64,000 nucleotides of DNA from a bacterium (GTDB lineage: Bacteria; Patescibacteriota; Gracilibacteria; UBA1369; GCA-2718715), in the NCBI GenBank assembly GCA_002718715.1, contig PBFJ01000041.1, positions 28-64,027 of the forward strand, given 5' to 3'. Positions 9,176-41,730 of this stretch are shown piece by piece. The position numbers were made by a program, and so were the translations under genes. The notes under the pieces were generated by a model, which worked only from the letters and a program-made list of their open reading frames with translations, was not told the DNA's origin and searched no databases. Each line of letters opens with the position of its first letter. Within the stretch, counting starts at the first letter, position 1.

Positions 9176-9231
9176 ATTAATTTAGAGTGATTTTATGGAA
9201 GTTTATAAAATATTTCATATGCCAACATTAA

Positions 9232-18789: not shown

Positions 18790-18793
18790 TCAA

Positions 18794-21390: not shown

Positions 21391-21476
21391 TAATAATTTT
21401 TATAATATTCTCTAATATTGATCATACAGCAAATTAACTCTAGTAAAATTGGTTATTCTTTTTTTGCTAATATTGT

Positions 21477-22454: not shown

Positions 22455-22710
22455 GTTTTTTACTAATATTTCTTTTTGACAAGGATATCAATATTAAAAT
22501 ATAAATCATACAATTATTTATTAAATTAAGATAATTATAAAAAATAAATCATTTTTAATGGGTATCTCCTTAAGTAAAAATTTTTTCTTATTATTAATTT
22601 TTAAAAACCTTTACAGATTTTTATTGAAAAGGATTGAGTATCTTTTGAAATTCTATATTTATAGACAAAATAATAATTTGATTTTCTTGCAATCTAATAA
22701 TTAAAATTTA

Positions 22711-23978: not shown

Positions 23979-25868
23979 ATGCTATTTATTTTAATCCTTT
24001 TAGTATTTACTTATGCAATAAAAGTATTCATCGATACCCGTGGAATTACATTTTATTCTCCTAAATTAAATACCGATAATGAAAAGATGTTAGCTTTAGC
24101 CTCTCAATTAGGCAAAGAGGGTTTATTAAGGTGGCCAGGTTCTATTCATAATTTAAACAATGGTAAAGGTAGAGCAGAACTACGGGAATTTTGGATTTTT
24201 TTCATGGCGTTTGTTCAAAAAATGTTCCCAAGGGAAAAAAGAATTAAAGAACATGTGAATATAACCTTGTCGATTATTTCGCACGGCTTTTCTACACTTC
24301 TGATTTATGGTATTTCAAATTACTTTCTTCCAAGTTATTATGCATTTTTAATATCAACAATATATTTATTTTCTACTTGGTGCACTGAAGTTGTTTTATA
24401 TCTTGGACATATAATTTACTCGCAATTTTGGTTTTTATGCTCGCTTGGTTTAATTATTTTTGCCTATATCAATCAAAATATTAGTATTTCATTTTTGTTA
24501 TGTATATTTTTTGCTGGTTTTCTATCTTCAATATGTTTTACATCCTCAAGTGCATCTAGAAAATTTCCACCGATATTGATACTAAGCCAGATTTTTATTT
24601 GTATAAATATATTTTCTGATTCTCCAGAAAAATCTCTATTAATAACATTATTATTTATTACCGCAATATTGATTCTTGCAAAAATATTTTTGACAAAAAC
24701 TTATAAATTGATTAACAAATTTATAATTTCTAAAATAAATAATAATTCTGTAGAAAGTGAGAGAAACACATTTTTAGTATTTAACTTCTTATCTCCAGTG
24801 ATAATTTTTTCCCTTATTATCGTTTTTCCTGCTTTTATAGTTAATCAACTTACATCTTATTTACAAACACAATTAGTTTTTTCTGTAGGTATTTTTAGTG
24901 GATTTTTTCTTGTCCTTATGCCAAATCCTATTAAAAATCTAAAGCGCTACATGACATTTCTAGATATTGGTTCATGGGCTTCGCATTTTTTAGCTTATCC
25001 AGATCAAAAAAAAGTTTTTGGAAAAACATTACCTCGTAATTTTAGAGGAGCTGGGTTAAGGTGGCTTCCACCATTTTTTTGGAGCTTGATGCCAATAGAA
25101 TTATTTTTATTTTTTTTGACGTTAATCTCAATGGTTTATTGCTACTTTCAAGGAGAAACGAGCTTTTTAAGTATTTTCCTTATTTTATTAATTGGAATCA
25201 TGCCAACTCTTATTGTGGAAATTACAAATGGATTACAGGTTGGCAAATCCTACTTATCTAGTTTAACTGGTCTTTTAATAACTATAGTTTTGGGGTTTAG
25301 GTTTTTTCAAATAACCTTTAATCAAGCTACGCCTTATATCTTTACTTTATTAGCTTTTTTTCAATTATTCAGACTAATAAGTAATTATAAGAAAGATCTT
25401 CTTCCTTGTAGAATGGGACCTGCTTGGTTAAGACAGTTTTTATTAAAAAATAATCTAAATAATATTTATACATACGACACTTCTTATAATAATTGCTTTG
25501 TAAGAACATTAATGTATGGATTTGAATCTGAATTGAAGGTTAACTTTGTAAAAAAAATTGATGAGTGTCCTGAAGGATCAATATTTGTAGTTCCTCCTAC
25601 TTCATCAAAGTCAGTTTCAATGGAAACCGAATCTGAGGCAATAATAAATGGTAATTTTCGCGATGATCCAACGTTGAATACTTTACTTGATAATAATTCT
25701 ATTGAAAATTATGCTATCGCAAAATTTAAAACACTTGGCAGTAGTAAATACTATGTTAATGAAAGTGAGGTTACAAGTTATAGATACCACATACTAAATC
25801 AAATAAAGGATCATGATAGAGTATTATCTTGTGGCTGGGTACTTGATCTAAAATTATTAAAAATGTGA
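23979..25868 (+). CDS. Polytopic membrane protein with soluble C-terminal domain, GT-C-like candidate
   Basis: Roughly 11-13 hydrophobic segments; stop overlaps the methyltransferase start. Confidence 0.5.
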   Translation: MLFILILLVFTYAIKVFIDTRGITFYSPKLNTDNEKMLALASQLGKEGLLRWPGSIHNLNNGKGRAELREFWIFFMAFVQKMFPREKRIKEHVNITLSIISHGFSTLLIYGISNYFLPSYYAFLISTIYLFSTWCTEVVLYLGHIIYSQFWFLCSLGLIIFAYINQNISISFLLCIFFAGFLSSICFTSSSASRKFPPILILSQIFICINIFSDSPEKSLLITLLFITAILILAKIFLTKTYKLINKFIISKINNNSVESERNTFLVFNFLSPVIIFSLIIVFPAFIVNQLTSYLQTQLVFSVGIFSGFFLVLMPNPIKNLKRYMTFLDIGSWASHFLAYPDQKKVFGKTLPRNFRGAGLRWLPPFFWSLMPIELFLFFLTLISMVYCYFQGETSFLSIFLILLIGIMPTLIVEITNGLQVGKSYLSSLTGLLITIVLGFRFFQITFNQATPYIFTLLAFFQLFRLISNYKKDLLPCRMGPAWLRQFLLKNNLNNIYTYDTSYNNCFVRTLMYGFESELKVNFVKKIDECPEGSIFVVPPTSSKSVSMETESEAIINGNFRDDPTLNTLLDNNSIENYAIAKFKTLGSSKYYVNESEVTSYRYHILNQIKDHDRVLSCGWVLDLKLLKM

Positions 25869-27079
25869 TGAAATGCAGATGCTGTGGATCTGAAAAACTT
25901 GATTTAGTACTAGACCTAGGTGACCAACCTTGGGGAAACAATTTTATTTCAATTGAAAGTGAAGAGAAAGCTAAAGATTATCCTTTAAAACTTTTTTTTT
26001 GCTGTATTTGCAAGATGTTACAGCTTGATTATGCAATACCTAAGGAAGAAATGTTCGTTAAACATACCTATTTATCTGGAACAACAAGTTCTTTGAGAAA
26101 ACACTTTTTAGAAGTAACAAATTATGCTTTAACTCAAATAAACTTAGAAAAAAATAACTACATATTAGATATAGGAGGTAACGATGGAACTTTCTTGGAA
26201 CACTTTAAAGAAATGGGCCAATCAGTCCTTAATGTTGATTCAGGATTATTGCAAGCAGAAAAGTGTAAAGAAAAAGGTATTCCTTGCCTAAATAACTTTT
26301 TTAATCAAGAATTGGCAGATGAAATTCTATCTGATTATGGATATGCGTCTGTAATTCATGGTTCAGGAATTTTTTTCCATCTTGAGGAACTTCATAGTGT
26401 TTTTTCATGTGTAAGAAAATTACTAGATCCTAAAGATGGCTTATTAATAGCTGAATTTATTTATTTACCGGACATGATAGAAAATGTTGCATATGATCAG
26501 ATCTATCATGAACATTTATTGTATTACTCTCTTTCAACTTTTCAAAATCTTCTTGATTTATATGAATTAGAAATAGTTGATGCGATACGCAAACCGATCC
26601 ATGGAGGCAGCTGTATAGCCTTTGTAAGGCATAAGGGTAAATTTGCAAAATCAAAACAACTCAACGAACTATTAAAGTATGAAGAAGAAAAAAGATTTAA
26701 TTCGATTGATATATACCTAGATTTTGCGAAAAAGGTAAAACATAATAGAGAAATTTTAAAAAATATTTTATCTGATATCAGAAGCCAAGGTAAAACAATA
26801 ATTGCTTTAGGAGCGCCCGTAAAAGGAAGTACCCTAATTAATTATTGTAATTTAACCACCAATGAGATTGATTGCGGTGTGGAGATAAACCCCCATAAGT
26901 GCGGTACATATTATCCTGGCACTTCAATACCCGTTTTCCATCAGGACGATGTTGCACCTCCAGATTATTTTCTACTGTTATCTTGGAATTTTAAAGCTGA
27001 AATTTTATCAAAAATCAAACCTATTCTGGATAATGGAACGAAGATTATTGTGCCAATTCCTTATCCACAAGTTTTATAG
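25865..27079 (+). CDS. NDP-sugar C-methyltransferase (zinc-binding, class I SAM)
   Basis: CRCCG...CCIC, DIGGNDG, YDQIYHEH, HGGS, GAPVKG, LSWNF. Confidence 0.88.
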   Translation: MMKCRCCGSEKLDLVLDLGDQPWGNNFISIESEEKAKDYPLKLFFCCICKMLQLDYAIPKEEMFVKHTYLSGTTSSLRKHFLEVTNYALTQINLEKNNYILDIGGNDGTFLEHFKEMGQSVLNVDSGLLQAEKCKEKGIPCLNNFFNQELADEILSDYGYASVIHGSGIFFHLEELHSVFSCVRKLLDPKDGLLIAEFIYLPDMIENVAYDQIYHEHLLYYSLSTFQNLLDLYELEIVDAIRKPIHGGSCIAFVRHKGKFAKSKQLNELLKYEEEKRFNSIDIYLDFAKKVKHNREILKNILSDIRSQGKTIIALGAPVKGSTLINYCNLTTNEIDCGVEINPHKCGTYYPGTSIPVFHQDDVAPPDYFLLLSWNFKAEILSKIKPILDNGTKIIVPIPYPQVL

Positions 27080-27999
27080 TGAAAGTACTTGTAACAGGTT
27101 CTTCTGGTTTTTTAGGGAAATCATTATGCAAGCATTTGGAAGCTTTGGGATATGAATTGACTAGATCAAATAGTAATATTTGTGACTTGCGAAATCCTCT
27201 TTCTCTTGAGATTTATAATCAAATTAAATTTGATCAAATATTTCATCTTGCTGCTTGGACACAAGCAGGAGATTTTTGTCTATATCATCCAGGTGAACAA
27301 TGGATCATTAATCAGAAAATCAATTCTAATCTTTTGTCATGGTGGTCAACAAAACAACCGCAGGCAAAGCTAATTTCTATTGGAACAAGTTGTTCATATG
27401 ATCCTCAATTACCTTTAATTGAGGATAATTATCTTGAAGGAAAACCTATAGATAGCCTTTATACTTATGCCATGTGTAAAAGAATGCTTCAAATTGGTAA
27501 GGTTGCTCTTTCTAAGCAATTTGGATTGACCTATCTAACAGTGGTCCCTTCGACTCTTTATGGACTTGAATATGGAACTAAAGGTAAACAAATGCATTTT
27601 ATTTTTGATTTAATTAGAAAATTTCTAGAATTTAAATACTTTAAGCGTCCAATAGTTTTGTGGGGTGATGGTAATCAAAGAAGAGAATTGGTTTTTATAG
27701 AAGATTTTATTAATAATCTTATTGAGTTAGATAAATCAGAAAATAATAATATTTTTAATATTGGTGCAGGGGAAGATTACTCAATTAAGGAATTTGCTCA
27801 AATACTTGGAAATATTACGGGGGTAAATATTTCTAATGTACAGTTTGACGAATCCAAATACGTTGGAGCTTTATCGAAAGTTTTAGATAATACGAAAATA
27901 GATTCGAAGTTACCTAAAAGATTTAAAACTAATTTAAAAGATGGATTAAATAAAGTCGTTAATGAGTTTGAGCAGAAATTTCTTTCAAACATTAATTAA
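27079..27999 (+). CDS. Fcl-like GDP-sugar epimerase/reductase
   Basis: TGSSGFLG, IGTSCSY, YAMCKR, WGDGNQRRE. Confidence 0.8.
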   Translation: MKVLVTGSSGFLGKSLCKHLEALGYELTRSNSNICDLRNPLSLEIYNQIKFDQIFHLAAWTQAGDFCLYHPGEQWIINQKINSNLLSWWSTKQPQAKLISIGTSCSYDPQLPLIEDNYLEGKPIDSLYTYAMCKRMLQIGKVALSKQFGLTYLTVVPSTLYGLEYGTKGKQMHFIFDLIRKFLEFKYFKRPIVLWGDGNQRRELVFIEDFINNLIELDKSENNNIFNIGAGEDYSIKEFAQILGNITGVNISNVQFDESKYVGALSKVLDNTKIDSKLPKRFKTNLKDGLNKVVNEFEQKFLSNIN

Positions 28000-28095: not shown

Positions 28096-29085
28096 ATGTT
28101 GATTAGTAGAACACCTTATAGATTATCTCTTTACGGCGGAGGGCTTGATTATCCATCTTGGTTTGAGAAAAGAAATATTGAAGTCTTATGTGCTGGACTA
28201 GATTACTACTGTTATCAGGCAGTAAGGGAATTGCCACCATTTTTTTCTCATAAGTATAGAATTGCATATTCAAAAATTGAAGAAGTCAGTGAAATAAATA
28301 ATATTAAGCATCCAACAGCCAGAGAAGTAATAAGGGAATTCGGGTGTGGCAAAAGTTTGGAAATAACCTACTGCAGCGATTTACCATCAAGGAGTGGTAT
28401 AGGAAGCTCTTCCGCATTTACTGTAGGTTTGATTTCTTCCATATATGCTTTGACTAAAGAAGAGAAACTAGGGGAAGCCGAATTAGCAAGACTGGCTATT
28501 GATATAGAGCAGAATAAGACAGGAGAAACTATAGGTATTCAAGACCAATGTGCTTCAGCTTTTGGAGGATTTGTTCATATTACTGCTAATAAAGAAGGTG
28601 TGAAACCAAGAAGGATAGAAGTTAGAAAAGATTACCAAAATTATATTGAGTCTTCGCTTTTGATGGGTTTTACTGGTATTCAGAGATATTCACATCATGC
28701 ATCTAAAAAAGTTGATAATTATTTAAAGTATTCGGAACAATGTGAGAAATTAAACGAATTGCAAGAAATTTCTCAAAAAGGAATTGAGGCGTTTTCAAGA
28801 GAAGCTGATTTAGAAGAGAATGCACGACTTACTAGGCTTTGTAGAGATATTAAATTGTCCATTAATAACGATATACAAAACTCTCAGTTAATGGAAATTA
28901 TTGAAGAATCTGAAAAAGCCGGTTCATTATGTACTCGAATAATGGGAGCAGGAGGCGGAGGTTTCTTTATATGTTGGGCTCCAGAATCACGACATCAAGC
29001 AATTAAAGAAAGAATAAATGTTAAAACATGGGTTAAAGTCAAAATAAGTTCTTCAGGAAGTCAAGTAATATTATCTGAAAGATAA
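28096..29085 (+). CDS. hddA: D-glycero-alpha-D-manno-heptose-7-phosphate kinase (GHMP family)
   Basis: RTPYRLSLYGGGLDYP, LPSRSGIGSSSAF, GIQDQ, GAGGGGF. Confidence 0.85.
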   Translation: MLISRTPYRLSLYGGGLDYPSWFEKRNIEVLCAGLDYYCYQAVRELPPFFSHKYRIAYSKIEEVSEINNIKHPTAREVIREFGCGKSLEITYCSDLPSRSGIGSSSAFTVGLISSIYALTKEEKLGEAELARLAIDIEQNKTGETIGIQDQCASAFGGFVHITANKEGVKPRRIEVRKDYQNYIESSLLMGFTGIQRYSHHASKKVDNYLKYSEQCEKLNELQEISQKGIEAFSREADLEENARLTRLCRDIKLSINNDIQNSQLMEIIEESEKAGSLCTRIMGAGGGGFFICWAPESRHQAIKERINVKTWVKVKISSSGSQVILSER

Positions 29086-29263: not shown

Positions 29264-30445
29264 ATGAAATACCCTTTAATGAAAAATAATTTATTAGAAC
29301 AGGATTTATTACCTGTAATTGAATTGTTAAAAACAAAAGATCCAATTTTAACTTCAGGTCCTAAGGTAAAGGAATTCGAAAAAGCTTGGTCTAATTGGTT
29401 AGGTGTGAAATATAGTGTTTTTGTTAATAGTGGCTCTTCAGCTAATTTATTATGTTTAGCTTTATTAAAAGAAAAATTTCCTGAGGGAGGGGATGTTATT
29501 GTTCCTCCATTCACTTGGAGTTCAGATATAAGTTCAATAATGTGGATGGGCTTTAATCCTGTATTTGTAGACATAAATTTATCTTCACTAAGCTTGAATA
29601 CTGAACTAGTTATTAAAGAGTTTGAAAAAAATAAAAATATTAAAGCTATTTTTTTAACTCATGCCCAAGGTATCAATGGCTTAAACAAAAAATTAATTGA
29701 ATTTATTAATAAAAATGATATTTTTCTAATTGAAGATGTTTGTGAATCTCATGGTGTAGTATCGGAAAATAATAAAAAAGCAGGCTCAATAGGTGACTTA
29801 TCTTGTTTCTCTTTTTATTATGCACATCATATGAGCACTATTGAAGGGGGCATGGTTTGTACAGATGATGAAGAAAAATATGAGGTTTTGAGAATGCTTA
29901 GGAGTCATGGAATGGTTAGAGAAATGGATAATCCTTTAAGAAAGAAGATTTGGATTGATAATTATAAGGATTTAAATGAAAAGTTTATTTTTACTAGACC
30001 TGCATTTAATTTAAGGAATAATGAGATAGGAGCAACTATCGGTCTCGAACAATTGAAAAGATTAGATTGGATGGTCAAAAAAAGGTCTGAAAATTTTAAA
30101 TTATTTTTAGAGTTGCTTCCTGATTGGTGTTATAAGGGCTTTGATCTTGAAGGGCAAAGTAATTACGCCTTTAATTTAATCCTAAAAGAAAAAGATGAAT
30201 ACTTAATGAGCGATTTGCAAAAACGTCTTGAGAAAAATGAGATTGAATTTAGAAGGGGTAGTGCAGGAGGAGGTAATCAGATGAGGCAGCCTTATGTTAG
30301 AGAATGTTTTAATTTTACTGAACAAGATATAAATAAAATCGCACCCGTTACGGACCATATCCATTTCTTTGGAATGTATTTAGGTAATTATCCAGAATTA
30401 AGTTCAGAATCAATTAAAGAAATTGTAAATGTAATTAATGGATAA
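29264..30445 (+). CDS. PLP/PMP-dependent GDP-4-keto-6-deoxy sugar 3-dehydratase (ColD-type)
   Basis: NSGSSANL, EDVCESHG, SFYYAHHMSTIEGG (His in place of the Schiff-base Lys), RSHG. Confidence 0.8.
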   Translation: MKYPLMKNNLLEQDLLPVIELLKTKDPILTSGPKVKEFEKAWSNWLGVKYSVFVNSGSSANLLCLALLKEKFPEGGDVIVPPFTWSSDISSIMWMGFNPVFVDINLSSLSLNTELVIKEFEKNKNIKAIFLTHAQGINGLNKKLIEFINKNDIFLIEDVCESHGVVSENNKKAGSIGDLSCFSFYYAHHMSTIEGGMVCTDDEEKYEVLRMLRSHGMVREMDNPLRKKIWIDNYKDLNEKFIFTRPAFNLRNNEIGATIGLEQLKRLDWMVKKRSENFKLFLELLPDWCYKGFDLEGQSNYAFNLILKEKDEYLMSDLQKRLEKNEIEFRRGSAGGGNQMRQPYVRECFNFTEQDINKIAPVTDHIHFFGMYLGNYPELSSESIKEIVNVING

Positions 30446-31183
30446 ATGAATTTAAATATTGTTATTCTTGCTGGTGGGAAAGGAACAAGAGTAAGAGAAG
30501 TCCTAAAGGATACACCCAAAATAATGGCCCAAATTGAGGGGAAGCCTTTTTTGGAATGGCTATTAGCTTGGATTGACTCATGGAACTTAGAAATTTCAAA
30601 AAATATTATTTTGTCTACTTGTATCGGGCAAGAAATAATAAAGAAATATTGTGAAATAAATAATTTGAATGTGAAATGTGTACCAGAGCAAAAACCTCTT
30701 GGAACACTTGGAGCACTAGCTAATGTGGCATCTATAAATAATGCTAAAAATTATTTAGTTTTAAATGGAGATACAATTTTTAAAGCAGATTTTTATAAAT
30801 TTCATAAAAGGTTCAGTTTAGAAGAGGATAAGCCCCTAATAATGTTAAAAAAAATTTTAAAGAATGATCGATACGGAGGTTTTGAACAGATTGATAATGA
30901 ATGGTTATTCAGTAAAAAAAGAACAGAATTTATATCATTAGGTGCATTTTTAATTTCAAGAGATAACTTGAAAAAAAGATGGTTAAGCGCAACTCAAATA
31001 CCTTTTGAACATGACCTCATTAACAATTGTGGGAAAGAAATTTTGATTGATGAAAACCTTTTTGGTAGAGAGCCAGTTTCAGCAGAAGTCCTTAATATCA
31101 ATACACCATTTATAGATATTGGCATACCCAAAACATTAAAAGAAGCTCAAACATTTATACCTAAAATTATTAATTTGAAGTAA
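30446..31183 (+). CDS. hddC: Heptose-1-phosphate guanylyltransferase, HddC-like
   Basis: LAGGKGTR..PK, PLGTLGA, LNGDT, FIDIG; hddA/gmhA context. Confidence 0.75.
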   Translation: MNLNIVILAGGKGTRVREVLKDTPKIMAQIEGKPFLEWLLAWIDSWNLEISKNIILSTCIGQEIIKKYCEINNLNVKCVPEQKPLGTLGALANVASINNAKNYLVLNGDTIFKADFYKFHKRFSLEEDKPLIMLKKILKNDRYGGFEQIDNEWLFSKKRTEFISLGAFLISRDNLKKRWLSATQIPFEHDLINNCGKEILIDENLFGREPVSAEVLNINTPFIDIGIPKTLKEAQTFIPKIINLK

Positions 31184-31191
31184 TTGAAACT

Positions 31192-32388
31192 ATGAAATTC
31201 GTTATTATTGGTTCTGGTATTATTGGACTCTCAATAGCTAAAGCCTTAATAGATAAGAAGATTCATAAACCTTTAAATATTCTAATTTTAGATAAATATG
31301 CTATCCCCTCTAAAGGGACATCAGTTCATAATAGTGGAGTTTTGCATGCTGGTTTGTACTATAAACCTGGATCAATGAAAGCAAAACTTTCAATAGATGG
31401 AGGAATAAAACTGAGAGAATGGTGCAAAAAGATTAATCTTCCAATATTAGAATGTGGCAAATTATTAATACCTTTTAATGAAAATGATTATGTAAATTTA
31501 GAAAAAATTGAAAAAAATGCATTAAATAATGGTTGCAATGTTGAAATGATAGATCATGATAGGGCTTCAAATATTCAACCTTTCCTAATTAAAAAAGATA
31601 AGTACTTGTGGTCCCCAAATACTAGTGTTTTCGATCCAAAATTAATAGTAGAAAGACTTTATAAATCTTTGAAGGAAATGGGAGTTAATTTCTTGAAAAA
31701 ATCAGTAATTTTAGATGATTCAGATAAAAAAAGGTTGATTTTTGATGACTACACTAATTTAAGTTATGAGAATTATATAAATTGTGCTGGACCAGGCGCT
31801 CTAGATATTGCTAAATCAGTCACTAATAAATTTGATAATCTAACTATTCTTCCTTTTTTAGGACAATACGCGGTTCAAAAATCTGGATTGGAAATTAAAA
31901 CAAATCTATACCCAGTTCCAGATCCTGAGTTACCTTTTTTAGGAATTCACTTAACTCCTAGAATAAATAAATCATCTTTGATTGGACCTAATGCTATCCC
32001 AGTATTTAAGAAAGATATTCAAGGTTATGATTTAAAAGATATGAGAGATATTCCTTCAATAATTACGAATAATATTATTTTATTTGCATCGAATAAATCT
32101 AATTATCGCAACCATGCTCTATCAGAATTATCTTTCAATTCTAAAAATAAATTTTATGTTAATGCACTGAGGTACTTTTCAAGTGATCTTAAGTCTAATT
32201 TTCAAATAGAAATGGACTCTAAAACGTACGGGATAAGAGCTCAGTTACTTAATCGAAATACATATGAATTGGAAAATGATTTTATTTATGAGAAAATAAA
32301 TAATAATATACATATTGTTAATGCTGTTAGTCCTGCATTTACATCATGTTTCTCTTTGGCTGAATTTATAGTGAATAAGGTAATTTAA
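31192..32388 (+). CDS. lhgO: L-2-hydroxyglutarate oxidase family FAD oxidoreductase
   Basis: IGSGIIG, HNSGVLHAGLYYKPGSMKA, YPVPDPELPFLGIHLT, GIRAQ, NAVSPAFT. Confidence 0.88.
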   Translation: MKFVIIGSGIIGLSIAKALIDKKIHKPLNILILDKYAIPSKGTSVHNSGVLHAGLYYKPGSMKAKLSIDGGIKLREWCKKINLPILECGKLLIPFNENDYVNLEKIEKNALNNGCNVEMIDHDRASNIQPFLIKKDKYLWSPNTSVFDPKLIVERLYKSLKEMGVNFLKKSVILDDSDKKRLIFDDYTNLSYENYINCAGPGALDIAKSVTNKFDNLTILPFLGQYAVQKSGLEIKTNLYPVPDPELPFLGIHLTPRINKSSLIGPNAIPVFKKDIQGYDLKDMRDIPSIITNNIILFASNKSNYRNHALSELSFNSKNKFYVNALRYFSSDLKSNFQIEMDSKTYGIRAQLLNRNTYELENDFIYEKINNNIHIVNAVSPAFTSCFSLAEFIVNKVI

Positions 32389-32407
32389 TTTCAAATAAGA
32401 TAAAACT

Positions 32408-33346
32408 ATGAAAATAATTATTTGTGGTGCAACTGGCTTTATTGGTAGAAATCTTGTTGAATACTTTAATAAAAATGGCAATGAAATAATTGCAGTTTTT
32501 AATAAAAGAGATCCTTTTCCTGTTAATTCAGGAAAGGTTAAATGGATAAAAGCAGATTTACGTATACCTGGAGTCCTTAAAGAACATTTGCCAGGAACTG
32601 ATGTTCTTCTTCAATTTGCGGCAACAACCTCTGGAGCTAAAGACATAATCGAAAGACCTTATATCCATGTAACTGATAACGCTGTAATTAATTCATATTT
32701 GCTTAGAGAATGTTTTGAAAAAAAAGTAAGACATTTTATTTTTCCTAGTTGTACTGTTATGTTAAGTTCTATTGAGAATCAAAAAGAATCTGATTGGGAT
32801 CCAAATAATCAAATTTTTGGTAATTATTTTGGGGTTGGTAATACAAAAATTTATATTGAAAAAATGTGTGAGTTTTATAGTTCACTAGGTCTTAAAACAA
32901 CAGCTTTAAGACATTCAAATGTATATGGGAAATACGATAAATTTGATCTTTATAAAAGTCATGTTTTAGGCGCAACTATTAGGAAGGTTATCAATGCTAA
33001 AGAAAATGAAGTACTGGAAGTCTGGGGATCGGGCAAAGCAAAAAGAGATTTTATATTTGTTGATGATCTTGTTGAAATGATAGAAAAATCAATCTTAAAT
33101 CAATCAGATAGTTTTGGGCTTTATAATTGTGGAATGGGATATTCCATATCAATAAATGATTTGGTAAAGAAAATAATAAAAATATCAGGTAAAAATCTAA
33201 GTATTAAAAATAACATTGATAAACCAGATTTCCCAACAGCTCTTTCACTTAATTGTGAAAAGGCTTTTACTGAATTGAAATGGAAAGTTAATACTAATTT
33301 AGAAGAGGGGTTAAAAAAAACATATCAATGGGTTAATGAGAACTAG
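32408..33346 (+). CDS. Fcl-like NAD(P)-dependent epimerase/reductase
   Basis: GATGFIG, AATTSGA, FPSCT, RHSNVYG, SHVLGA, WGSG..RDF. Confidence 0.8.
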   Translation: MKIIICGATGFIGRNLVEYFNKNGNEIIAVFNKRDPFPVNSGKVKWIKADLRIPGVLKEHLPGTDVLLQFAATTSGAKDIIERPYIHVTDNAVINSYLLRECFEKKVRHFIFPSCTVMLSSIENQKESDWDPNNQIFGNYFGVGNTKIYIEKMCEFYSSLGLKTTALRHSNVYGKYDKFDLYKSHVLGATIRKVINAKENEVLEVWGSGKAKRDFIFVDDLVEMIEKSILNQSDSFGLYNCGMGYSISINDLVKKIIKISGKNLSIKNNIDKPDFPTALSLNCEKAFTELKWKVNTNLEEGLKKTYQWVNEN

Positions 33347-33379
33347 AGAAGAAATTTAAAATTTAAGAATTAACATTTT

Positions 33380-34354
33380 TTAATTAGGCATTGTTTCTCT
33401 TACTTCTTTTAGTAAAAATTCAACACTTTCTTCTAAGGAATAAATTGGACGCCAATCGTTAAGTTTTTCAAACTTAGTTGTATCAGGAACTTGTAAAGTA
33501 ATATCTACTGGTCTAAATAATGTAGGGTCTGACTCACAAACAATTTTTGAAGAGGAATATTTAATAAGCATATTTAAAAATTCTCCTACTAATAAAGCGT
33601 TCTTTCCTCCAAGATTATAAGCCTCTCCAGTTTTCCCATAAAGAGCAATGTCAATATAACAATCCATTGCATCTCTTACATCGATCAGTGTACGAAGAGA
33701 TTCAAGATTCCCATGTTTAAGAATTTTTGTTTTACCTCTTTCAATTGATACTATCTGCCTAGCAAATGATGTAGCAAAAAGGTCAGCACGTCTGGGATTT
33801 ATATATGCAAACATTCGTGTTCTAATAGCTGAAATGTCATAAGCTTTCCCATAAGAATAAACTAACTGATCTTGTGAGCATTTTGAAACTGAATATGGAT
33901 TTACTGGGTTAATAGGACAATTCTCATTTATTGGGATCTGATTTTTATCTACTTGACCATATACTTCAGAAGTACTGCAATGAACAACTAATGGTTTGAT
34001 TTCTGTGATTCTTATAGCTTCAAGTAAATTAAGGGTCGAAAGAATATTATTCTGTACCACACTTACTGGTGTTTCAAAACATGCCCTTACGTTTGCATGA
34101 GAAGCTAAGTTAAATATTAAATCTGGTTTAACAAGATTTAATGAACGAATTACTGAAGATAAATCACAGAGATCGCATTCATAAAGATTAATTTTATTTT
34201 GAATTTTCCTTAAATTATTAATTGTTGTAGTGCTATGCCATCTTGATATTCCATGTATAGATGTTTGTGGAAATCTCGTAAGTATTTGTTCAGCTAAATA
34301 ACTACCACCAGAACCACTTATTCCTGTTATTAGGACTGTTTTGAAATTTCGCAT
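33380..34354 (-). CDS. GDP-mannose/GDP-heptose 4,6-dehydratase (Gmd/DmhA-like)
   Basis: ITGISGSGGSYL, CSTSEVYG, PYSVSK, GNL..R..DVRD, RPVD. Confidence 0.82.
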   Translation of the reverse strand: MRNFKTVLITGISGSGGSYLAEQILTRFPQTSIHGISRWHSTTTINNLRKIQNKINLYECDLCDLSSVIRSLNLVKPDLIFNLASHANVRACFETPVSVVQNNILSTLNLLEAIRITEIKPLVVHCSTSEVYGQVDKNQIPINENCPINPVNPYSVSKCSQDQLVYSYGKAYDISAIRTRMFAYINPRRADLFATSFARQIVSIERGKTKILKHGNLESLRTLIDVRDAMDCYIDIALYGKTGEAYNLGGKNALLVGEFLNMLIKYSSSKIVCESDPTLFRPVDITLQVPDTTKFEKLNDWRPIYSLEESVEFLLKEVRETMPN

Positions 34355-34358
34355 TAAT

Positions 34359-34378
34359 ATATCTAAACAATTAGATAT
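34359..34378. promoter_or_regulatory. 8-bp inverted repeat in a divergent promoter region
   Basis: ATATCTAA-acaa-TTAGATAT immediately upstream of the dehydratase start; AT-rich, so it may be chance. Confidence 0.25.
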
Positions 34379-34490
34379 TTAGACTACCACAGTTTCAAAA
34401 TAACTAATTTTGTTAATATAAAGTTTTTTTAAATTCTCAGTTATCTTGTTTTGATTGATGCATTAATATTAATTAATTGTTTTACAAAAT

Positions 34491-35459
34491 TTGATGAAAA
34501 AAGTTCTAGTAACAGGTGGTACTGGGATGATAGGGAGATATTTAGTTCCTAAACTATTGTCTAGGAATTATGAAGTATTTATTGCCTCATTAGATGGAGA
34601 AGAACTCTGCCCAAAAGGTGCAAATTTTAGAAAATTAGATTTGCGAAATTTTGATAATTGTTTGTCAGTATGTAGAGAGATGGATGAAGTTTATCATTTG
34701 GCGGGAGTGAAAGGATCCCCAAAAATGTGTAGAGAACAACCTGCGGATTTTTTTGTTCCCACTATTACTTTTAGTTTAAATATGATGGAGGCAGCAAGAA
34801 TATGCGGAGTTGATAAATACTTATATACAAGTTCAGTGGGTGTTTATCATCCAGCAGATATATTCAATGAAGATGATGTATGGAGAACATTCCCTTCAGA
34901 AAATGATAAATTTGCTGGCTGGGCCAAAAGAATGGGAGAACTTCAAGTGGAAGCTTATTTGCAGCAATACAAAAAAGGTAATTATTGTATCGTAAGGCCA
35001 GGAAACGTTTATGGAAGATTTGATAACTTTGACCCTGATAATGCAATGGTTATTCCATCATTAATTGCAAGAATATATAATGGAGAAAATCCACTCAAAG
35101 TTTGGGGAAATGGCAAGCCAATTAGAGACTTTATTCATGCTGATGATGTGGCATCAGCAATGATTTTCGTTATGGATAATAATATTAATATCCCAGTAAA
35201 TGTATCAAGTGGTAATGAAAATACTATAAAATCAATAGTAGAAATTATAAGTGAATCATTTGATCATATAGATTATGAATTTACTAATGAAGGCCCCTCA
35301 GGCGATAATAAAAGGCTTATGAATGTTAGTAGGCTAAAAAGTTACGGATGGGAACCAAATGTAGGAATAAAAGATGGGATTGACGATACAGTGAAATGGT
35401 ATATAGCTGAAGGACATACTGGTTATCAAAGATATAATGCTTTTAAAGAAAAAAATTAA
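34491..35459 (+). CDS. Fcl/GME-like GDP-sugar epimerase/reductase
   Basis: TGGTGMIG, TSSVGVY, GWAKR, RPGNVYG, WGNG..RDFIH. Confidence 0.82.
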   Translation: MMKKVLVTGGTGMIGRYLVPKLLSRNYEVFIASLDGEELCPKGANFRKLDLRNFDNCLSVCREMDEVYHLAGVKGSPKMCREQPADFFVPTITFSLNMMEAARICGVDKYLYTSSVGVYHPADIFNEDDVWRTFPSENDKFAGWAKRMGELQVEAYLQQYKKGNYCIVRPGNVYGRFDNFDPDNAMVIPSLIARIYNGENPLKVWGNGKPIRDFIHADDVASAMIFVMDNNINIPVNVSSGNENTIKSIVEIISESFDHIDYEFTNEGPSGDNKRLMNVSRLKSYGWEPNVGIKDGIDDTVKWYIAEGHTGYQRYNAFKEKN

Positions 35460-35559
35460 ACTTAGCATAAAATAATAATTCTTAAATTTTTTTATAACTA
35501 ATCAATATTTGATTACAGTTTTCAAGATATGTTAATTTACAGGGACATAATTTAATCAA

Positions 35560-36153
35560 ATGTTAGTTAAAGATTTAATAGATTTTGAAAAAGACATAGC
35601 TGACATTTTTAATCAAGCTAAAATTAGGGCTCCAATCCATTTACATGGCAATAATGAAAATCAATTATTAAAAATATTTGAAAATATTAATTCAGATGAT
35701 TGGATTTTCAGTTCATGGAGAAGTCATTATCACTGTTTGTTAAAGGGAGTTCCCCCCCAACAATTAAAAAAGGATATTCTCGATGGCAAAAGTATGACCC
35801 TCCTTTACCCAGAATATAAAATTTATACTAGTGCAATAGTCGCAGGGGTTATTCCTATTGCCTTGGGTACAGCACTTTCTCTAAAAAGAGAGGGAAAGAA
35901 TGAAAAGGTTTTTCTTTTTATGGGTGGTATGACTTCTGAAACAGGTGCAGCTCATGAAGCACACAAATATGCAACATCGCATAACTTGCCATTAGAATTT
36001 ATTATTGAAATTAATCATAAATCAGTTTGCACAGACACCTTAAAGACATGGAATATGAAAAAATATTCCTTAGTGGGAAAGAAAAATGTAACTCATTACG
36101 AATATGATTTGCCTTGGCCTCATGCAGGCTCTGGGGTTAGAGTACAATTCTAG
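35560..36153 (+). CDS. ThDP-dependent enzyme, E1-alpha-like subunit (short)
   Basis: PIHL, WRSHYH, SAIVAG, ThDP-motif region GGMTSETG...EIN, PHAG. Confidence 0.8.
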   Translation: MLVKDLIDFEKDIADIFNQAKIRAPIHLHGNNENQLLKIFENINSDDWIFSSWRSHYHCLLKGVPPQQLKKDILDGKSMTLLYPEYKIYTSAIVAGVIPIALGTALSLKREGKNEKVFLFMGGMTSETGAAHEAHKYATSHNLPLEFIIEINHKSVCTDTLKTWNMKKYSLVGKKNVTHYEYDLPWPHAGSGVRVQF

Positions 36154-36158
36154 GAATA

Positions 36159-36701
36159 TTGGTTATGAAATATTTTGATGAATTAAAAAGAACTATGGAA
36201 TGGCTGAGTGATCAAGAAAATACTATTTTTATTGGTCAAGCTGTTGAAGTCCCTGGGACTGCCATGTTCAATACTTTAAAAGATATAGACATGAATAAAA
36301 GAATAGAAATGCCTGTTTTTGAAGATACTCAGTTAGGGATTTCTGTTGGGATGTCGCTTACTGGTAAAAGAGTAATAAGCATTTTTCCTCGATGGAATTT
36401 TTTACTATGTGCAACAAATCAGCTTGTTAACCACTTAGATAAATTCCCCATTATGAGTGACGGTAAAATTAATCCAAAAATTATTGTTAGAACAGCTGTT
36501 GGTTCAGAAAGGCCCTTATTCCCAGGTCATCAACATATTGGTAATATGTCGAATGCATTTAGAGGAATGTTATCCTCCGTAAATGTTATTGAACTTAATG
36601 AGCCTGAAGAGATTTTTCCTGCTTACGAAAAAGCATATAATAGCGAGGACGGAAAAAGTACAATATTAGTAGAGTTTCAAGACTTTTATAATGAGAAATA
36701 A
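36159..36701 (+). CDS. ThDP-dependent enzyme, E1-beta-like pyrimidine-binding subunit (no C-terminal domain)
   Basis: FIGQAV, EMPVFE, NQLVNH, GHQH. Confidence 0.8.
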   Translation: MVMKYFDELKRTMEWLSDQENTIFIGQAVEVPGTAMFNTLKDIDMNKRIEMPVFEDTQLGISVGMSLTGKRVISIFPRWNFLLCATNQLVNHLDKFPIMSDGKINPKIIVRTAVGSERPLFPGHQHIGNMSNAFRGMLSSVNVIELNEPEEIFPAYEKAYNSEDGKSTILVEFQDFYNEK

Positions 36702-36729
36702 TTATATTAATAACAAAAAATTTATTTGA

Positions 36730-36774
36730 TTTAAATTTGAGTAATTAAAAAAAATTGGAATTACTCAATTTAAA
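36730..36774. terminator. Hairpin downstream of the ThDP gene pair (terminator or operator)
   Basis: TTGAGTAATT (36737-46) pairs with AATTACTCAA (36759-68); extends about 6 bp further past a 1-nt bulge. Confidence 0.4.
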
Positions 36775-36996
36775 AATTTAATAAAAATTTTCTTTAGAAA
36801 AAATACTCTTTAATATTCATAGCAATAAAAATTAAGTACTTTTAAGATATTTTTCATAAATAATTTAGAAGATCCATACATAGTTGTTATTTGGTAATTG
36901 TGTTTGACCTTTGCAATGTAAAATAATTTATTAGAACAACTTTAAGATGATAAAGTTAGGGCTTATTAATTCAATTAATGTTTTGAAAGGGTTTTT

Positions 36997-37929
36997 ATGA
37001 CAAAAATTTTAGTGACAGGTGGTGCTGGTTATATTGGATCAGTCTTGATCCCGAAACTTCTCTCGGATGGTTATGAAGTAACTTGTGTAGATAACTTAAT
37101 GTATGAGCCAACGAGCTTAATGATGGCAACAATTAATAAAAACTTTAAATTAATTGTAGGTGATGCGAGAGATAAAGAATTAATGAAACCTTTGATAGAA
37201 AAAAACGATGTCATAATTCCACTTGCTTGTATGACGGGCGCACCTTTATGTAATAAAGATAAAGTTGCAGCAGCCTCAGTAAATAAAGACTCTGTTGTAA
37301 TGTGTTCAGAACTCAGTTCTCAAGACCAGTTGCTGATTTATCCATGTACGAATAGTGGATACGGAATTGGGGAGGAGGGAATTTTTTGTACAGAAGAATC
37401 GCCTCTAAAGCCTATTTCTCTATATGGGAAATTAAAGGTTGAGGCTGAAAATATTCTCCTTCAAAAAGGGAATGCTATTACATTTAGACTAGCTACAGTA
37501 TTTGGAATAAGTCCTAGACCAAGGCTTGACCTCTTAGTAAATGATTTTACGTACCGAGCCTATTTTGATAAAACAGTTGTACTCTTTGAAGCAGAATTCA
37601 AAAGAAATTATTTGCATATTGAAGATGCCGCTGATGGATTTAGATTCGCTATAAAAAATCCCAATTTAATGGGAAATTGCTTTAATTTGGGATATAGTGA
37701 AGCAAATCTATCTAAACGTGAATTATGCGAAGAAATCAAAAAAGTTATTCCTGACTTTGTATATCTAATTTCTGAAATAGGTTCAGATATAGATAAGAGA
37801 AACTACATCGTAAGTAATCAAAAGATAGAGGATGCAGGATTTAAGGCAAAAAGAGATTTATCAACCGGAATTAAGGAATTAGTGAAGGCTTTGCCATTAT
37901 TAAAAAGAACTCAGTTTGCAAATATTTAA
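36997..37929 (+). CDS. GDP-D-glycero-alpha-D-manno-heptose C4-dehydrogenase-like SDR (Campylobacter Cj1427/WcaG type)
   Basis: TGGAGYIGSVL, IIPLAxxxGAPLC, YPCTNSGYGIGE, CTEESPLKPIS, FRLATVFGISPRxRLDLLVNDFTYRAY, C-terminal FAN match Cj1427 as recalled. Confidence 0.8.
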   Translation: MTKILVTGGAGYIGSVLIPKLLSDGYEVTCVDNLMYEPTSLMMATINKNFKLIVGDARDKELMKPLIEKNDVIIPLACMTGAPLCNKDKVAAASVNKDSVVMCSELSSQDQLLIYPCTNSGYGIGEEGIFCTEESPLKPISLYGKLKVEAENILLQKGNAITFRLATVFGISPRPRLDLLVNDFTYRAYFDKTVVLFEAEFKRNYLHIEDAADGFRFAIKNPNLMGNCFNLGYSEANLSKRELCEEIKKVIPDFVYLISEIGSDIDKRNYIVSNQKIEDAGFKAKRDLSTGIKELVKALPLLKRTQFANI

Positions 37930-37990: not shown

Positions 37991-38581
37991 ATGAATAAAA
38001 AATTTACAACTAAAGAATATGTTAAAGCTTCTCTTTCAAAAACTATGGATCTCCTGCGAGATCTAATAAATTTAGATGATTATATATTTAATATTCAAGA
38101 AGCTTCTCAGCTTATAGTCGATTCTATATCAAGCAATCATACTATTTATCTTGCAGGTAATGGAGGAAGCGCTGCTCAGTCACAACACTTTGCGGCTGAA
38201 TTGGTCTCTAGATTTAATTTTGATAGAAATCCTTTGCCCGCAGTAGCACTAACTACCGATACCTCAGTTTTAACAGCAGTATCAAATGATTATGGTTATG
38301 AAAAGGTTTTTGAGAGGCAGTTAGCTGGATTAGCCCAAAAAGGAGATGTTTTTATTGGATTTTCAACTTCAGGAACTTCAAAAAATATCCTTAATTGCTT
38401 TAAAAAAGCTAGAGAAATGAAATTATCATCAATTGGTATTTCAGGAGAAGTAGGTATGAAAGAATCTAGACCAGATATATTAATCTCTATCCCCTCACAA
38501 AATACCCCTTTAATTCAAGAAATTCACTGCATTACTTCCCATTTAATTTGTGACATAGTTGAAAAGACAATTTTTAATTAA
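37991..38581 (+). CDS. gmhA: Sedoheptulose-7-phosphate isomerase
   Basis: GNGGSAAQSQHFAAE, SNDYGY, STSGTS, IQEIH. Confidence 0.93.
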   Translation: MNKKFTTKEYVKASLSKTMDLLRDLINLDDYIFNIQEASQLIVDSISSNHTIYLAGNGGSAAQSQHFAAELVSRFNFDRNPLPAVALTTDTSVLTAVSNDYGYEKVFERQLAGLAQKGDVFIGFSTSGTSKNILNCFKKAREMKLSSIGISGEVGMKESRPDILISIPSQNTPLIQEIHCITSHLICDIVEKTIFN

Positions 38582-38623: not shown

Positions 38624-39265
38624 ATGTCAGAAATAATTAATCTAGATAAATTTTACTTTGAAGAGTTTTCAAGATCAATATCAAAATTTACTCTCAAATC
38701 GAAAAAAAAATTATTTAAGAAGGCATTATTTTTAGATAGAGATGGAGTTCTTATTGAGGATGTACATCATATTAATTCACCTAAAAAAGTAAAATTATGC
38801 CCGAAAGTTTTAGATTTTTTGAAAGATGCTAGAAAAAAAAATTATGGTTTAATTGTCGTAACCAATCAATCTTCAGTATCAAGGTCAATAATTTCATACC
38901 AAGAATATAAAGCTATAACAAGTAAATTTCTATCACTACTTACTGAAGATATATACCCCGAATTTATTTTAAGTAGTTTTCATTTACCAAAAAATACAAA
39001 TAATTTAGAAAATTATAATTGGCGAAAACCTGGAACAGGAATGATAGATTATGTATTAAATATTTCTAAATTCAATACATCTCAGTCATATATAATAGGA
39101 GATAAATTAACAGATCTAATCGCTGGTTACAGAAGTGGATTATCAAACTTCATATATGTAAAGTCAAAGCTTCATTCAAATCAATCAAATTTAATAAAAA
39201 ACTGGTCTATAAAAGAAAGTATTCCTTATAAAGAATTGATAGAACTAGATTCTTCTTTTATTTGA
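38624..39265 (+). CDS. gmhB: Heptose-1,7-bisphosphate phosphatase
   Basis: FLDRDGVL, VTNQS, RKPGTGM, IGDKLTD. Confidence 0.88.
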   Translation: MSEIINLDKFYFEEFSRSISKFTLKSKKKLFKKALFLDRDGVLIEDVHHINSPKKVKLCPKVLDFLKDARKKNYGLIVVTNQSSVSRSIISYQEYKAITSKFLSLLTEDIYPEFILSSFHLPKNTNNLENYNWRKPGTGMIDYVLNISKFNTSQSYIIGDKLTDLIAGYRSGLSNFIYVKSKLHSNQSNLIKNWSIKESIPYKELIELDSSFI

Positions 39266-40170: not shown

Positions 40171-41730
40171 GTGAATAGAATTTCTATCAATAAATTACGA
40201 GAACTTTATAATCAAATATCAGAAAAAAGGATAATTAAGCCAAGATTGAAAAAAGGGATTTTTAATTATTTAAATTTATCTATTCATATTAGTAGGGATG
40301 AGAGAGATTTTGACCTTACGAATTATAAATTATTTAGAAGTCTTATTTCATCAAATCAATTAGATTTAAGAGAAATAAAAAATAATAAATCAAAAAAAAT
40401 TTACGAAGACTATTTTTGTAATTTTAAGGAATTTAATTATTTATTATCAAAAGATATACCTTTTTTATTTTTAATTGATATTTTGAAATTTATTAAACAA
40501 ATGTTTGATACAATAATAATATTAATAATAAGCACTATATCGTCTTTTAAAAACTCTTTTAAGATTATTTTATTTGGAAAGAATAAACTTATTAGAAAAA
40601 AAATTCATAGTATTTATTATTGGGAAAAAAGAGATAATTCAGCTTTGTATTATTATCCTAGTATTTTTGATGATAGTAATAACTTAATATTCGTATCATC
40701 CTTTGCGGACAGTAAAAAATTTTTATTTTTGGGTTTATTAGGTTCTTTGAGAAATAGTAAATATATTTCTCCAGTAAAAAATTTAGATATAAAAAGTCTT
40801 ATATTAAGCTTATTTCAGTTTATACATCTTTATTTAAATGATTTATCTTTAGTATTTACAAATAAGGATTGTTCATTTTTGAAATTTTGGTATGGCTGGA
40901 AAAAATGTTCAGAAATTTTTTATAGTATTCTCATCTATAATTCCATTTTTGAATTAGTTAAAAATTCCTATGAATGTGAATTCATCTCTTGGCATGAGAA
41001 TCAAGTCTCTAATCGTGCATTTTCATTGGCAGTATCAAATGCAATAAAAAAGTTTAATTGTAAATCAACTTTATCTACATATAATGGTTCTCCAATTTCA
41101 CAACGAAATAAAAGGCAATTTTTCCCTACTAAAGATGAATTAAGAATAGGTTTTTGGGGTAAAAAATATTATGTACAAGATAAAGAATCAAAATATGAAT
41201 TAGCTTCCTACTTAAATAAAAAAAAGATCAAAATAGATTTACAAATTGTTCCTGAAAATATGATTAGAATTCAAAATGATAAATTTGAAGGTTTTAAAAA
41301 AGTTAAATTAATTAGAGAAATTACAATATTTACTCATGACTCATATTGGGATCTTCTGGCATGTTTATCAGGAGTAATTAATTTTAGAAATGATTTTCAT
41401 AAAAAAAATTGTTCAACAATTAAAGAAAATAACTTAATATATATAAGGCTTCATCCTTGCTTAATTAAAAAAGAAGCATTAAAAAGAATATTGAGTATGC
41501 AAGAGATTTCTACAAACTACAGATTCGAATTTATAAGTAATAATAGTGAATCAATTATGGATTCAATTAAAAAAAGTTCATTTTGTTTTTTTGGATTATC
41601 ATCATATATTAATTTAGCGATTTCTCTTAATTCAAATGTAATTTCAGTTGATACAAATCATATTGATAAATCTCCAATAAATTCAAAATTCTTAAGTACT
41701 AGAAAATTTCTAGTTTCTAATCCATGGTAA
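40171..41730 (+). CDS. Hypothetical surface-carbohydrate biosynthesis protein (possible GT-B transferase)
   Basis: 519 aa; SWHENQ, IRLHP, GLSSYINLAI motifs resemble GT-B C-terminal domains. Confidence 0.45.
   Translation: MNRISINKLRELYNQISEKRIIKPRLKKGIFNYLNLSIHISRDERDFDLTNYKLFRSLISSNQLDLREIKNNKSKKIYEDYFCNFKEFNYLLSKDIPFLFLIDILKFIKQMFDTIIILIISTISSFKNSFKIILFGKNKLIRKKIHSIYYWEKRDNSALYYYPSIFDDSNNLIFVSSFADSKKFLFLGLLGSLRNSKYISPVKNLDIKSLILSLFQFIHLYLNDLSLVFTNKDCSFLKFWYGWKKCSEIFYSILIYNSIFELVKNSYECEFISWHENQVSNRAFSLAVSNAIKKFNCKSTLSTYNGSPISQRNKRQFFPTKDELRIGFWGKKYYVQDKESKYELASYLNKKKIKIDLQIVPENMIRIQNDKFEGFKKVKLIREITIFTHDSYWDLLACLSGVINFRNDFHKKNCSTIKENNLIYIRLHPCLIKKEALKRILSMQEISTNYRFEFISNNSESIMDSIKKSSFCFFGLSSYINLAISLNSNVISVDTNHIDKSPINSKFLSTRKFLVSNPW

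Follow-up and report, generated by a model that had tools for sequence, protein, structure and literature searches.

An LhgO-family flavoenzyme gene in a GDP-heptose locus of probable Prochlorococcus origin: a candidate L-2-hydroxyglutarate recycling step for a Cj1427-type dehydrogenase

Within a 64,000-nucleotide stretch of contig PBFJ01000041.1 (the whole of which is hereafter called the window) we analysed a nucleotide-sugar locus which occupies 25.9-39.3 kb and lies nearly all on the + strand. Three of its genes are central to this study, and encode (i) an FAD-dependent oxidoreductase of the LhgO/L2HGDH family (31192-32388, +; 398 amino acids), (ii) an orthologue of the Campylobacter jejuni protein Cj1427, a candidate GDP-heptose C4-dehydrogenase (36997-37929, +; 310 amino acids), and (iii) a ColD-like sugar 3-dehydratase dependent on pyridoxal or pyridoxamine phosphate (PLP/PMP; 29264-30445, +). 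The original prediction for this DNA had joined the three enzymes in a loop that recycles 2-oxoglutarate through L-2-hydroxyglutarate (L-2HG). Our results retain the three gene identities and suggest a looser arrangement, in which the flavoenzyme may act as an accessory partner of the Cj1427-type enzyme.

The remaining genes were identified, like the above, by Pfam, NCBIfam and PDB sequence searches of the open reading frames (ORFs) of the window. The locus begins with a tailoring gene for a sugar C-methyltransferase (25865-27079, +; Pfam PF08484, PF08421 and PF13489), a GDP-fucose-synthase-like short-chain dehydrogenase/reductase (SDR_A, 27079-27999, +; NCBIfam GDPFucSynFcl at 120 bits, below its cut-off, and Pfam Epimerase) and an HddA-like GHMP kinase (28096-29085, +), a heptose-7-phosphate kinase candidate which contains GHMP domains and whose top model is HddA (99.9 bits; cut-off 600). 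The ColD-like gene is followed by that of a sugar-1-phosphate nucleotidyltransferase (30446-31183, +), the stop of which, at 31183, is separated by 8 bases from the ATG of the LhgO-like gene at 31192. This gap had been correctly noted; the name hddC given to the upstream gene is tentative, since HddC is the top-scoring model at 106 bits but its equivalog cut-off is 300. Beyond the flavoenzyme gene lie an SDR of epimerase/reductase type (SDR_B, 32408-33346, +; Pfam Epimerase, GDP-fucose-synthase-like at 111 bits), a GDP-heptose 4,6-dehydratase-like SDR on the opposite strand (33380-34354, -), best matched among solved structures by 7us5, a C. jejuni GDP-heptose 4,6-dehydratase, and a further GDP-fucose-synthase-like SDR (SDR_C, 34491-35459, +; matches of the same type). 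Two short thiamine-diphosphate (TPP) subunits come next: TPPa, which is E1-alpha-like (35560-36153, +; Pfam E1_dh, E 8e-15, with a weak PDB match to pyruvate dehydrogenase E1 alpha), and TPPb, of the E1-beta/transketolase-pyrimidine-domain type (36159-36701, +; Pfam Transket_pyr at 26.3 bits, just below cut-off, and a PDB match). Directly downstream of the Cj1427 orthologue are GmhA, a sedoheptulose-7-phosphate isomerase (37991-38581, +; NCBIfam gmhA at 168 bits with a cut-off of 209, PRK13936 at 180 bits, Pfam SIS_2), and a GmhB-like HAD phosphatase (38624-39265, +; TIGR01656 at 89 bits, above cut-off, and GmhB models at 70-81 bits), while the GHMP kinase and the HddC-like transferase are located 6-9 kb upstream of the orthologue.

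The likeness of 36997-37929 to Cj1427 was borne out by full-length alignment with the Cj1427 structures (PDB 6vo6/6vo8) over residues 3-309 (E 4.2e-110, 371 bits; the runner-up SDR reached 72 bits). A hand count on the HMMER midline gave an identity of about 56%, and both the N-terminal nucleotide-binding motif (TGGAGYIGS) and the catalytic Y-x-x-x-K motif are kept. From this degree of identity, the window enzyme would be expected to share the mechanism of Cj1427 based on bound NAD(H) and 2-oxoglutarate. The description of 29264-30445 as ColD-like also held: the protein matches PDB 2gms (E 1.9e-51; Pfam DegT_DnrJ_EryC1) and has the DegT fold with a His in place of the Schiff-base Lys. In the alignment, AHH of the window protein is paired with SHH of 2gms, and the first His is the residue altered in PDB 3b8x, which we take to be the catalytic His188 of ColD.

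The assignment of the flavoenzyme gene to the LhgO family, within a sugar operon, was likewise supported. The protein has a full-length DAO-type FAD fold (PF01266, E 8e-37; residues 3-397 aligned with PDB 8w75), matches fly L2HGDH (8w75) with an E value of 4e-44 and is 27% identical to Escherichia coli LhgD (E 2e-40). Its top NCBIfam model is LhgO (NF008726) and the runner-up is type 2 glycerol-3-phosphate oxidase. Since the LhgO score (251.6 bits) is below the curated equivalog cut-off of 299, the protein should be called a family member rather than a proven isofunctional LhgO. According to PMC10726252, the 2-oxoglutarate site of fly L2HGDH consists of Ser88, His92, Tyr289, Leu299, His302 and Arg393, and GlpO is described there as having only four of the six, without equivalents of His302 and Leu299. 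All six are kept in the window protein (S48, H52, Y240, L250, H253 and R349), and the signature is intact in 97 of 99 fetched family members. Judged by these residues, the flavoenzyme is very probably active on L-2HG.

The window is deposited in an assembly (G000) assigned to a non-cyanobacterial phylum, whereas the original prediction had been framed in terms of cyanobacteria. This frame is appropriate for the window and not for the bin. Over 35 kb, the window shares 99.1-99.4% identity with the beginning of a Prochlorococcus single-cell contig of 158 kb which also encodes Photo_RC, and its identity to a second record from Prochlorococcus is about 90%. No Photo_RC, PsaA/PsaB or photosystem II antenna genes were found in G000, although the Synechococcus control was positive. 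For these reasons, the window is most likely Prochlorococcus island DNA mis-binned in a non-cyanobacterial assembly. G000 itself looks chimeric. It comprises 1.55 Mb with 9.2% contamination, the genomes of its phylum measure about 1 Mb, and a 12-kb piece of the bulk of G000 matched Prochlorococcus genomes at 69% over one conserved gene only. The GC content is 20-24% in eleven other contigs of G000 and about 29-30% in the remaining ones. In both Prochlorococcus genomes bearing the island, the island gene is the only true NF008726 match. The related Prochlorococcus locus L004 lacks a counterpart for about 830 bp of the window (34575-35408), that is, most of the SDR_C gene.

The chemistry on which the prediction drew is documented. 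As described in PMC10680097, the tightly held NADH of Cj1427 is reoxidised by 2-oxoglutarate in a ping-pong reaction that yields L-2HG, and the PLP-dependent C3-dehydratase of the C. jejuni HS:5 pathway consumes glutamate and yields 2-oxoglutarate and ammonia. Each Cj1427 turnover thus converts one 2-oxoglutarate to L-2HG, and each ColD-type turnover one glutamate to 2-oxoglutarate and ammonia. By analogy, the window locus would produce a GDP-activated heptose by way of GmhA, the GHMP kinase, GmhB and the HddC-like transferase, which would then be tailored. The Cj1427 orthologue would oxidise C4 with permanently bound NAD(H) and be reset by 2-oxoglutarate; the ColD-like enzyme could remove the 3-hydroxyl at the cost of glutamate; and the LhgO-family flavoenzyme would reoxidise L-2HG to 2-oxoglutarate, passing the electrons to quinone or another acceptor. 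If the cell has no LhgO elsewhere, the loop would be closed by the L-2HG dehydrogenase encoded on the island. We therefore propose, with moderate confidence, that the LhgO gene provides an accessory L-2HG to 2-oxoglutarate recycling step for the Cj1427-type enzyme. The gene identities, substrate-site residues, neighbourhoods and enrichment described here are observed, whereas each catalytic step and the electron acceptor are inferred.

An initial scan of genome contigs with the single LhgO-like protein returned two loci only, both from Prochlorococcus, which were too few for a test of gene neighbourhoods. Metagenome contigs were therefore scanned with the clade alignment, and the resulting 80 loci were mapped against the window proteins. 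There are about 110 cluster-level relatives of the LhgO-like protein at an identity of at least 42%, beyond which the scores fall. The 18 loci in this close group have in common genes for a GHMP kinase, SIS, ColD, NTP-transferase, LhgO, HAD, TPPa, TPPb and Cj1427, the kinase being a conserved member of the block. The nucleotidyltransferase is directly upstream of LhgO in 15/18, ColD is present in 9/18, TPPa in 7/18 and a Cj1427 orthologue (72-87% identity) in 5/18, or five of the eight whose contigs extend far enough. As for the other three, two are truncated on the upstream side of LhgO (L019 after 1.4 kb and L020 after 0.2 kb), and the third (L016) is a different glycan locus. The LhgO of L020 is 80% identical to that of genome G1113, where Cj1427 lies on the side missing from L020. 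At 30-39% identity there are 62 further loci, and the 384 kb of DNA flanking them contains no close Cj1427 orthologue. Glycan genes surround the majority of the 80 metagenome relatives and 12 of 16 fetched copies from picocyanobacteria and other cyanobacteria.

A quick IQ-TREE phylogeny with SH-aLRT support and midpoint rooting placed the window protein and its close loci in one clade (A; 16 rows, SH-aLRT 100), with L080 as a long branch beside it. All six Cj1427-linked rows fall in this clade and are spread across its three subclades. Clade A is separate both from the clade with E. coli LhgD and the housekeeping cyanobacterial copies, and from a large second glycan clade (D).

Co-occurrence was examined in 381 genomes of the picocyanobacterial family and in a sample of 401 genomes of the phylum. 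An LhgO-family gene was detected in 45 of the 381 picocyanobacteria and is therefore not core there. It is present in five of the seven genomes with a Cj1427 orthologue and in 40 of the 374 others (odds ratio 20.9, p 3e-4, a value to be read with the caution that related genomes are not independent). The two genes are no more than 11 kb apart in four of the seven (G001, G1113, G805 and G851). G1113 carries the clade A block with LhgO; G805 has a second type of Cj1427 block, interrupted by a clade D LhgO that reads the other way, and G851 has a clade D module beside a block of this second type. Since the adjacent copy in G805 belongs to the other glycan clade, the link between Cj1427 and LhgO arose at least twice. 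The G805 gene (L131:8405-9651) is split into overlapping frames (8405-8722 and 8653-9651), and is either a frameshifted pseudogene or affected by a sequencing error.

In the phylum sample, LhgO-family genes were found in 20/20 genomes with a Cj1427 orthologue and in 74/381 others (p 5e-14). This association rests on about two lineages, because the 19 orthologues that do not belong to the island share 78-99% identity among themselves. Not one of these 19 loci has LhgO within 10 kb; the LhgO of these genomes is of the housekeeping type and is separated from Cj1427 by 40 kb to 5 Mb or placed on a different contig. With one lineage and a distant housekeeping gene, the phylum-level table is weak evidence. 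A comparison within the phylum of G000 was uninformative, as these genomes are only about 1 Mb and just one of 400 others had even a 41% match to the Cj1427-like protein. The Cj1427 orthologues of the 19 loci (L089-L107) may act on a different substrate: 17 of the loci have no heptose kinase, isomerase or phosphatase nearby, the full heptose gene set being present in L097 and L103 only and the transferase alone in L095 and L096. A small ABC-ATPase-like gene adjoins the orthologue in most of them.

The evidence on the predicted co-occurrence is mixed: the two families are enriched together among picocyanobacteria and clade A LhgO genes share a conserved block with Cj1427 orthologues, but none of the 19 other cyanobacterial Cj1427 loci has LhgO within 10 kb. 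Several further observations weigh against the proposed recycling role. The picocyanobacterium G813 carries the whole block (GHMP kinase, SIS, ColD, NTP-transferase, HAD, Cj1427 at 74% and TPPa/b) without LhgO, the phosphatase following immediately after the transferase, and no LhgO-family gene was found in its genome (1.7 Mb, completeness not established). In G850 a Cj1427-like gene is present and LhgO was not detected, and in G1056 the second type of block is without LhgO, which occurs in another module on another contig. Conversely, G844 has a clade-A-like LhgO among unrelated genes with no Cj1427 orthologue nearby, L016 is a real exception of the same kind, and many LhgO genes of glycan loci have no close Cj1427 orthologue in their vicinity. 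The genes consistently adjacent to LhgO encode the nucleotidyltransferase and the HAD phosphatase, whereas Cj1427 is 4.6 kb away in the window. To these points must be added the missed equivalog cut-off. Because G813 carries the block without LhgO, the proposed step is taken to be accessory and not required; and because LhgO genes outside clade A are not regularly accompanied by ColD, the predicted three-enzyme loop is better described as one of two enzymes, to which ColD would add an optional source of 2-oxoglutarate.

The exceptions in G813 and G844 could also be read in another way, namely that the flavoenzyme is a general L-2HG clean-up enzyme that rides on variable islands, deals with L-2HG whatever its origin and is not specifically tied to Cj1427. 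A copy such as that of G844, which has a zinc transporter gene on one side, a carbamoyltransferase gene on the other and no heptose genes in its vicinity, is what this explanation leads one to expect, as are a G813 block that functions with no LhgO gene present and the great distances between the two genes in other cyanobacteria. We nevertheless consider it unlikely. The window gene starts 8 bp after the transferase gene in a run of genes on the same strand, the preference for glycan surroundings is shared by most metagenome relatives and fetched cyanobacterial copies, the picocyanobacterial enrichment with Cj1427 is about 21-fold in terms of the odds ratio, and a core repair gene would not be missing from 336 of 381 genomes.

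Somewhat less probable still is the view that the enzyme acts on another 2-hydroxy acid, or on a phosphorylated polyol or sugar of the precursor arm in the manner of a glycerol-3-phosphate oxidase, or that it makes an acid which decorates the glycan. Its position between a nucleotidyltransferase and a HAD phosphatase or SIS isomerase, which (with NTP-transferase, HAD and SIS) are its constant neighbours in both glycan clades, would suit such a role, and so would the second-ranking glycerol-3-phosphate oxidase model and the score below the LhgO cut-off. The substrate site argues otherwise, as all six residues that bind 2-oxoglutarate in L2HGDH are conserved, among them the Arg that holds the C5 carboxylate and the His and Leu that GlpO is reported to lack; moreover, the GDP-heptose route as set out in PMC10680097 requires no redox step.

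A third possibility, that the flavoenzyme supplies a 2-oxo acid donor to the E1-like thiamine enzyme for the addition of a carbon branch to a 4-keto sugar, is improbable: TPPa/b accompany LhgO in 7/18 close loci and E1-like genes travel with it in both glycan clades (a fused 685-amino-acid E1 in the L112 operon and TPP-like matches in L111, L047, L057 and L135), but no TPP gene occurs in the fetched flanks of the loci that combine LhgO with an SDR and an aminotransferase (L110, L113, L116, L120 and similar), the E1-like proteins resemble pyruvate dehydrogenase E1, whose substrate needs no dedicated supply, and TPPa/b are kept in G813 without LhgO.

TPPa and TPPb (35560-36701) constitute a minimal two-subunit thiamine enzyme (197 and 180 amino acids), apparently lacking the transketolase C-terminal domain. 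They are 64-79% identical in the close-clade loci, and L112:17728-19785 encodes the full fused E1 alpha-beta protein. Together with the C-methyltransferase at 25865-27079, these subunits suggest a branched-chain heptose product.

Returning to the recycling role, the clade D genes of complete picocyanobacterial genomes are arranged in tight operons of two patterns. That of L112 comprises, in order, an ABC exporter, HAD, LhgO, nucleotidyltransferase, SIS, a methyltransferase, a Zn-dependent alcohol dehydrogenase, an HldE-like heptose kinase, a 4,6-dehydratase-like SDR, another SDR whose top solved match is Cj1427 (E 4e-34), and the fused E1-type enzyme. Other clade D genes are directly followed by those for a 4-epimerase-type SDR and an aminotransferase of the PseC/ArnB kind, and a thiamine enzyme is absent. 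Each pattern includes an SDR that might oxidise sugars without dehydrating them and would then need an external oxidant, an arrangement that would fit a more general form of the recycling idea and speak against the thiamine enzyme as the true partner of LhgO. It is possible, though on balance doubtful, that clades A and D as a whole are pathway-dedicated L-2HG dehydrogenases, which flag glycan loci containing SDRs of the bound-NAD, 2-oxoglutarate ping-pong type, including operons like those of L112 (Cj1427-related SDR and E1-type enzyme) and L110 (4-epimerase-like SDR and aminotransferase).

Two further LhgO-family genes deserve mention. The G000 assembly contains a second one (36% identity, clade D) in the region C47:9575-13580 (L002), where it is flanked by genes for a PglK-like ABC exporter and an SDR of 4-epimerase type and stop and start codons overlap; it probably belongs to the other organism of the bin. 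In G844, a complete picocyanobacterial genome of 2.03 Mb, the stand-alone clade-A-like gene is adjoined by the carbamoyltransferase gene and that of a small protein with the Pfam domain SxtJ (L136:12032-14295).

Outside the sugar locus, a UDP-GlcNAc 2-epimerase (16045-17187) and a fused HisF/HisH-like protein (18776-20251) point to a second sugar pathway in the island. Five ORFs of 325-629 amino acids, located within 20392-23709 (-), 23979-25868 (+) and 40171-41730 (+), matched no Pfam family with an E value of 1e-3 or below, and the three on the minus strand are not paralogues of each other. One of these had been predicted to encode a 2-oxoglutarate dioxygenase at 20.4 kb. Sequence searches did not support this claim: ORF 20392-21390 gave no Pfam match (E <=1e-3) and no PDB match, and the sole lead, obtained with a language model, is a likeness of its protein-atlas features to PhyH-type dioxygenase clusters (score 0.96). 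A scan for promoters and terminators returned 49 promoter-like sites against 79.5 expected and was uninformative in this AT-rich DNA.

Among the closest known systems, the Cj1427 locus of C. jejuni shares with the window an orthologue-level SDR together with genes for GDP-heptose synthesis and heptose 4,6-dehydratase-like and C3-dehydratase-like genes, whereas the window host is a marine cyanobacterium and its locus further includes a C-methyltransferase, an LhgO-family gene and a split TPP enzyme of minimal size. To our knowledge, the capsule loci of C. jejuni do not contain LhgO. The GDP-3,6-dideoxy-heptose pathway of C. jejuni HS:5, which consists of a 4,6-dehydratase, a PLP-dependent C3-dehydratase, an epimerase and a C4-reductase, has counterparts in the ColD-like protein, which bears His at the site of catalysis, in the heptose 4,6-dehydratase-like gene and in the GDP-fucose-synthase-like reductases; an epimerase of the cupin type was not observed in the window. 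A further difference is that the window also encodes the Cj1427-type dehydrogenase, whose pairing with the C3-dehydratase is, in the account given in PMC10680097, shown in vitro only.

The E. coli LhgO/LhgD and animal L2HGDH enzymes have the fold and the six substrate-site residues in common with the window protein, which differs in belonging to a separate, well-supported clade and in scoring below the equivalog cut-off. In E. coli K-12, lhgD adjoins glaH and gabDTP, whereas the window copy is part of a nucleotide-sugar operon. The nearest experimental parallel to the coupling is Pseudomonas aeruginosa WbpB, which is not an SDR. WbpB holds NADH tightly, makes D-2-hydroxyglutarate from 2-ketoglutarate and is inhibited by this product, and deletion or loss of D2HGDH lowers O-antigen, as reported in PMC8651671. 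Both WbpB with D2HGDH (PA0317) and SerA with D2HGDH in serine synthesis are thus dehydrogenases with bound NADH that are reset by 2-oxoglutarate, which a flavin 2-hydroxyglutarate dehydrogenase restores (PMC8651671, PMC9504171). They differ from the window in the D-enantiomer, in the unrelated fold of D2HGDH and in a recycler that is reported as a separate housekeeping gene rather than part of the operon. The coupling of 2-oxoglutarate and 2-hydroxyglutarate is accordingly known, and the form proposed here would be new in its link to the L-enantiomer and to an SDR, and in being embedded in an operon. Our full-text literature searches, which did not take in the primary Cj1427 papers, returned no paper that ties LhgO/L2HGDH to a glycan or heptose pathway.

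To conclude, should the proposed recycling role be correct, it would explain the fate of the L-2HG formed by Cj1427-type enzymes, of which one molecule arises per sugar, and would mean that the coupling demonstrated by experiment for D-2-hydroxyglutarate, in which WbpB or SerA is paired with D2HGDH, also exists for the L-enantiomer and for enzymes of the SDR family. In practical terms, it would provide a partner enzyme that could drive Cj1427 reactions on catalytic amounts of 2-oxoglutarate, and would give genome annotators a reason for seemingly out-of-place LhgO genes in glycan loci. If the broader reading of clades A and D were also true, LhgO would be a genomic flag for a widespread and unrecognised wiring of nucleotide-sugar oxidation to the quinone pool via a 2-oxoglutarate/L-2HG shuttle.

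For Prochlorococcus, 2-oxoglutarate is both the carbon skeleton of nitrogen assimilation and a signal of carbon/nitrogen balance, and the loss of one molecule per heptose would therefore be costly. With the island-borne flavoenzyme, in a cell without another LhgO, sugar oxidation would neither drain the pool of 2-oxoglutarate and glutamate nor leave a dead-end acid. A streamlined ocean cyanobacterium would, in that case, have imported the recycling step along with the pathway.

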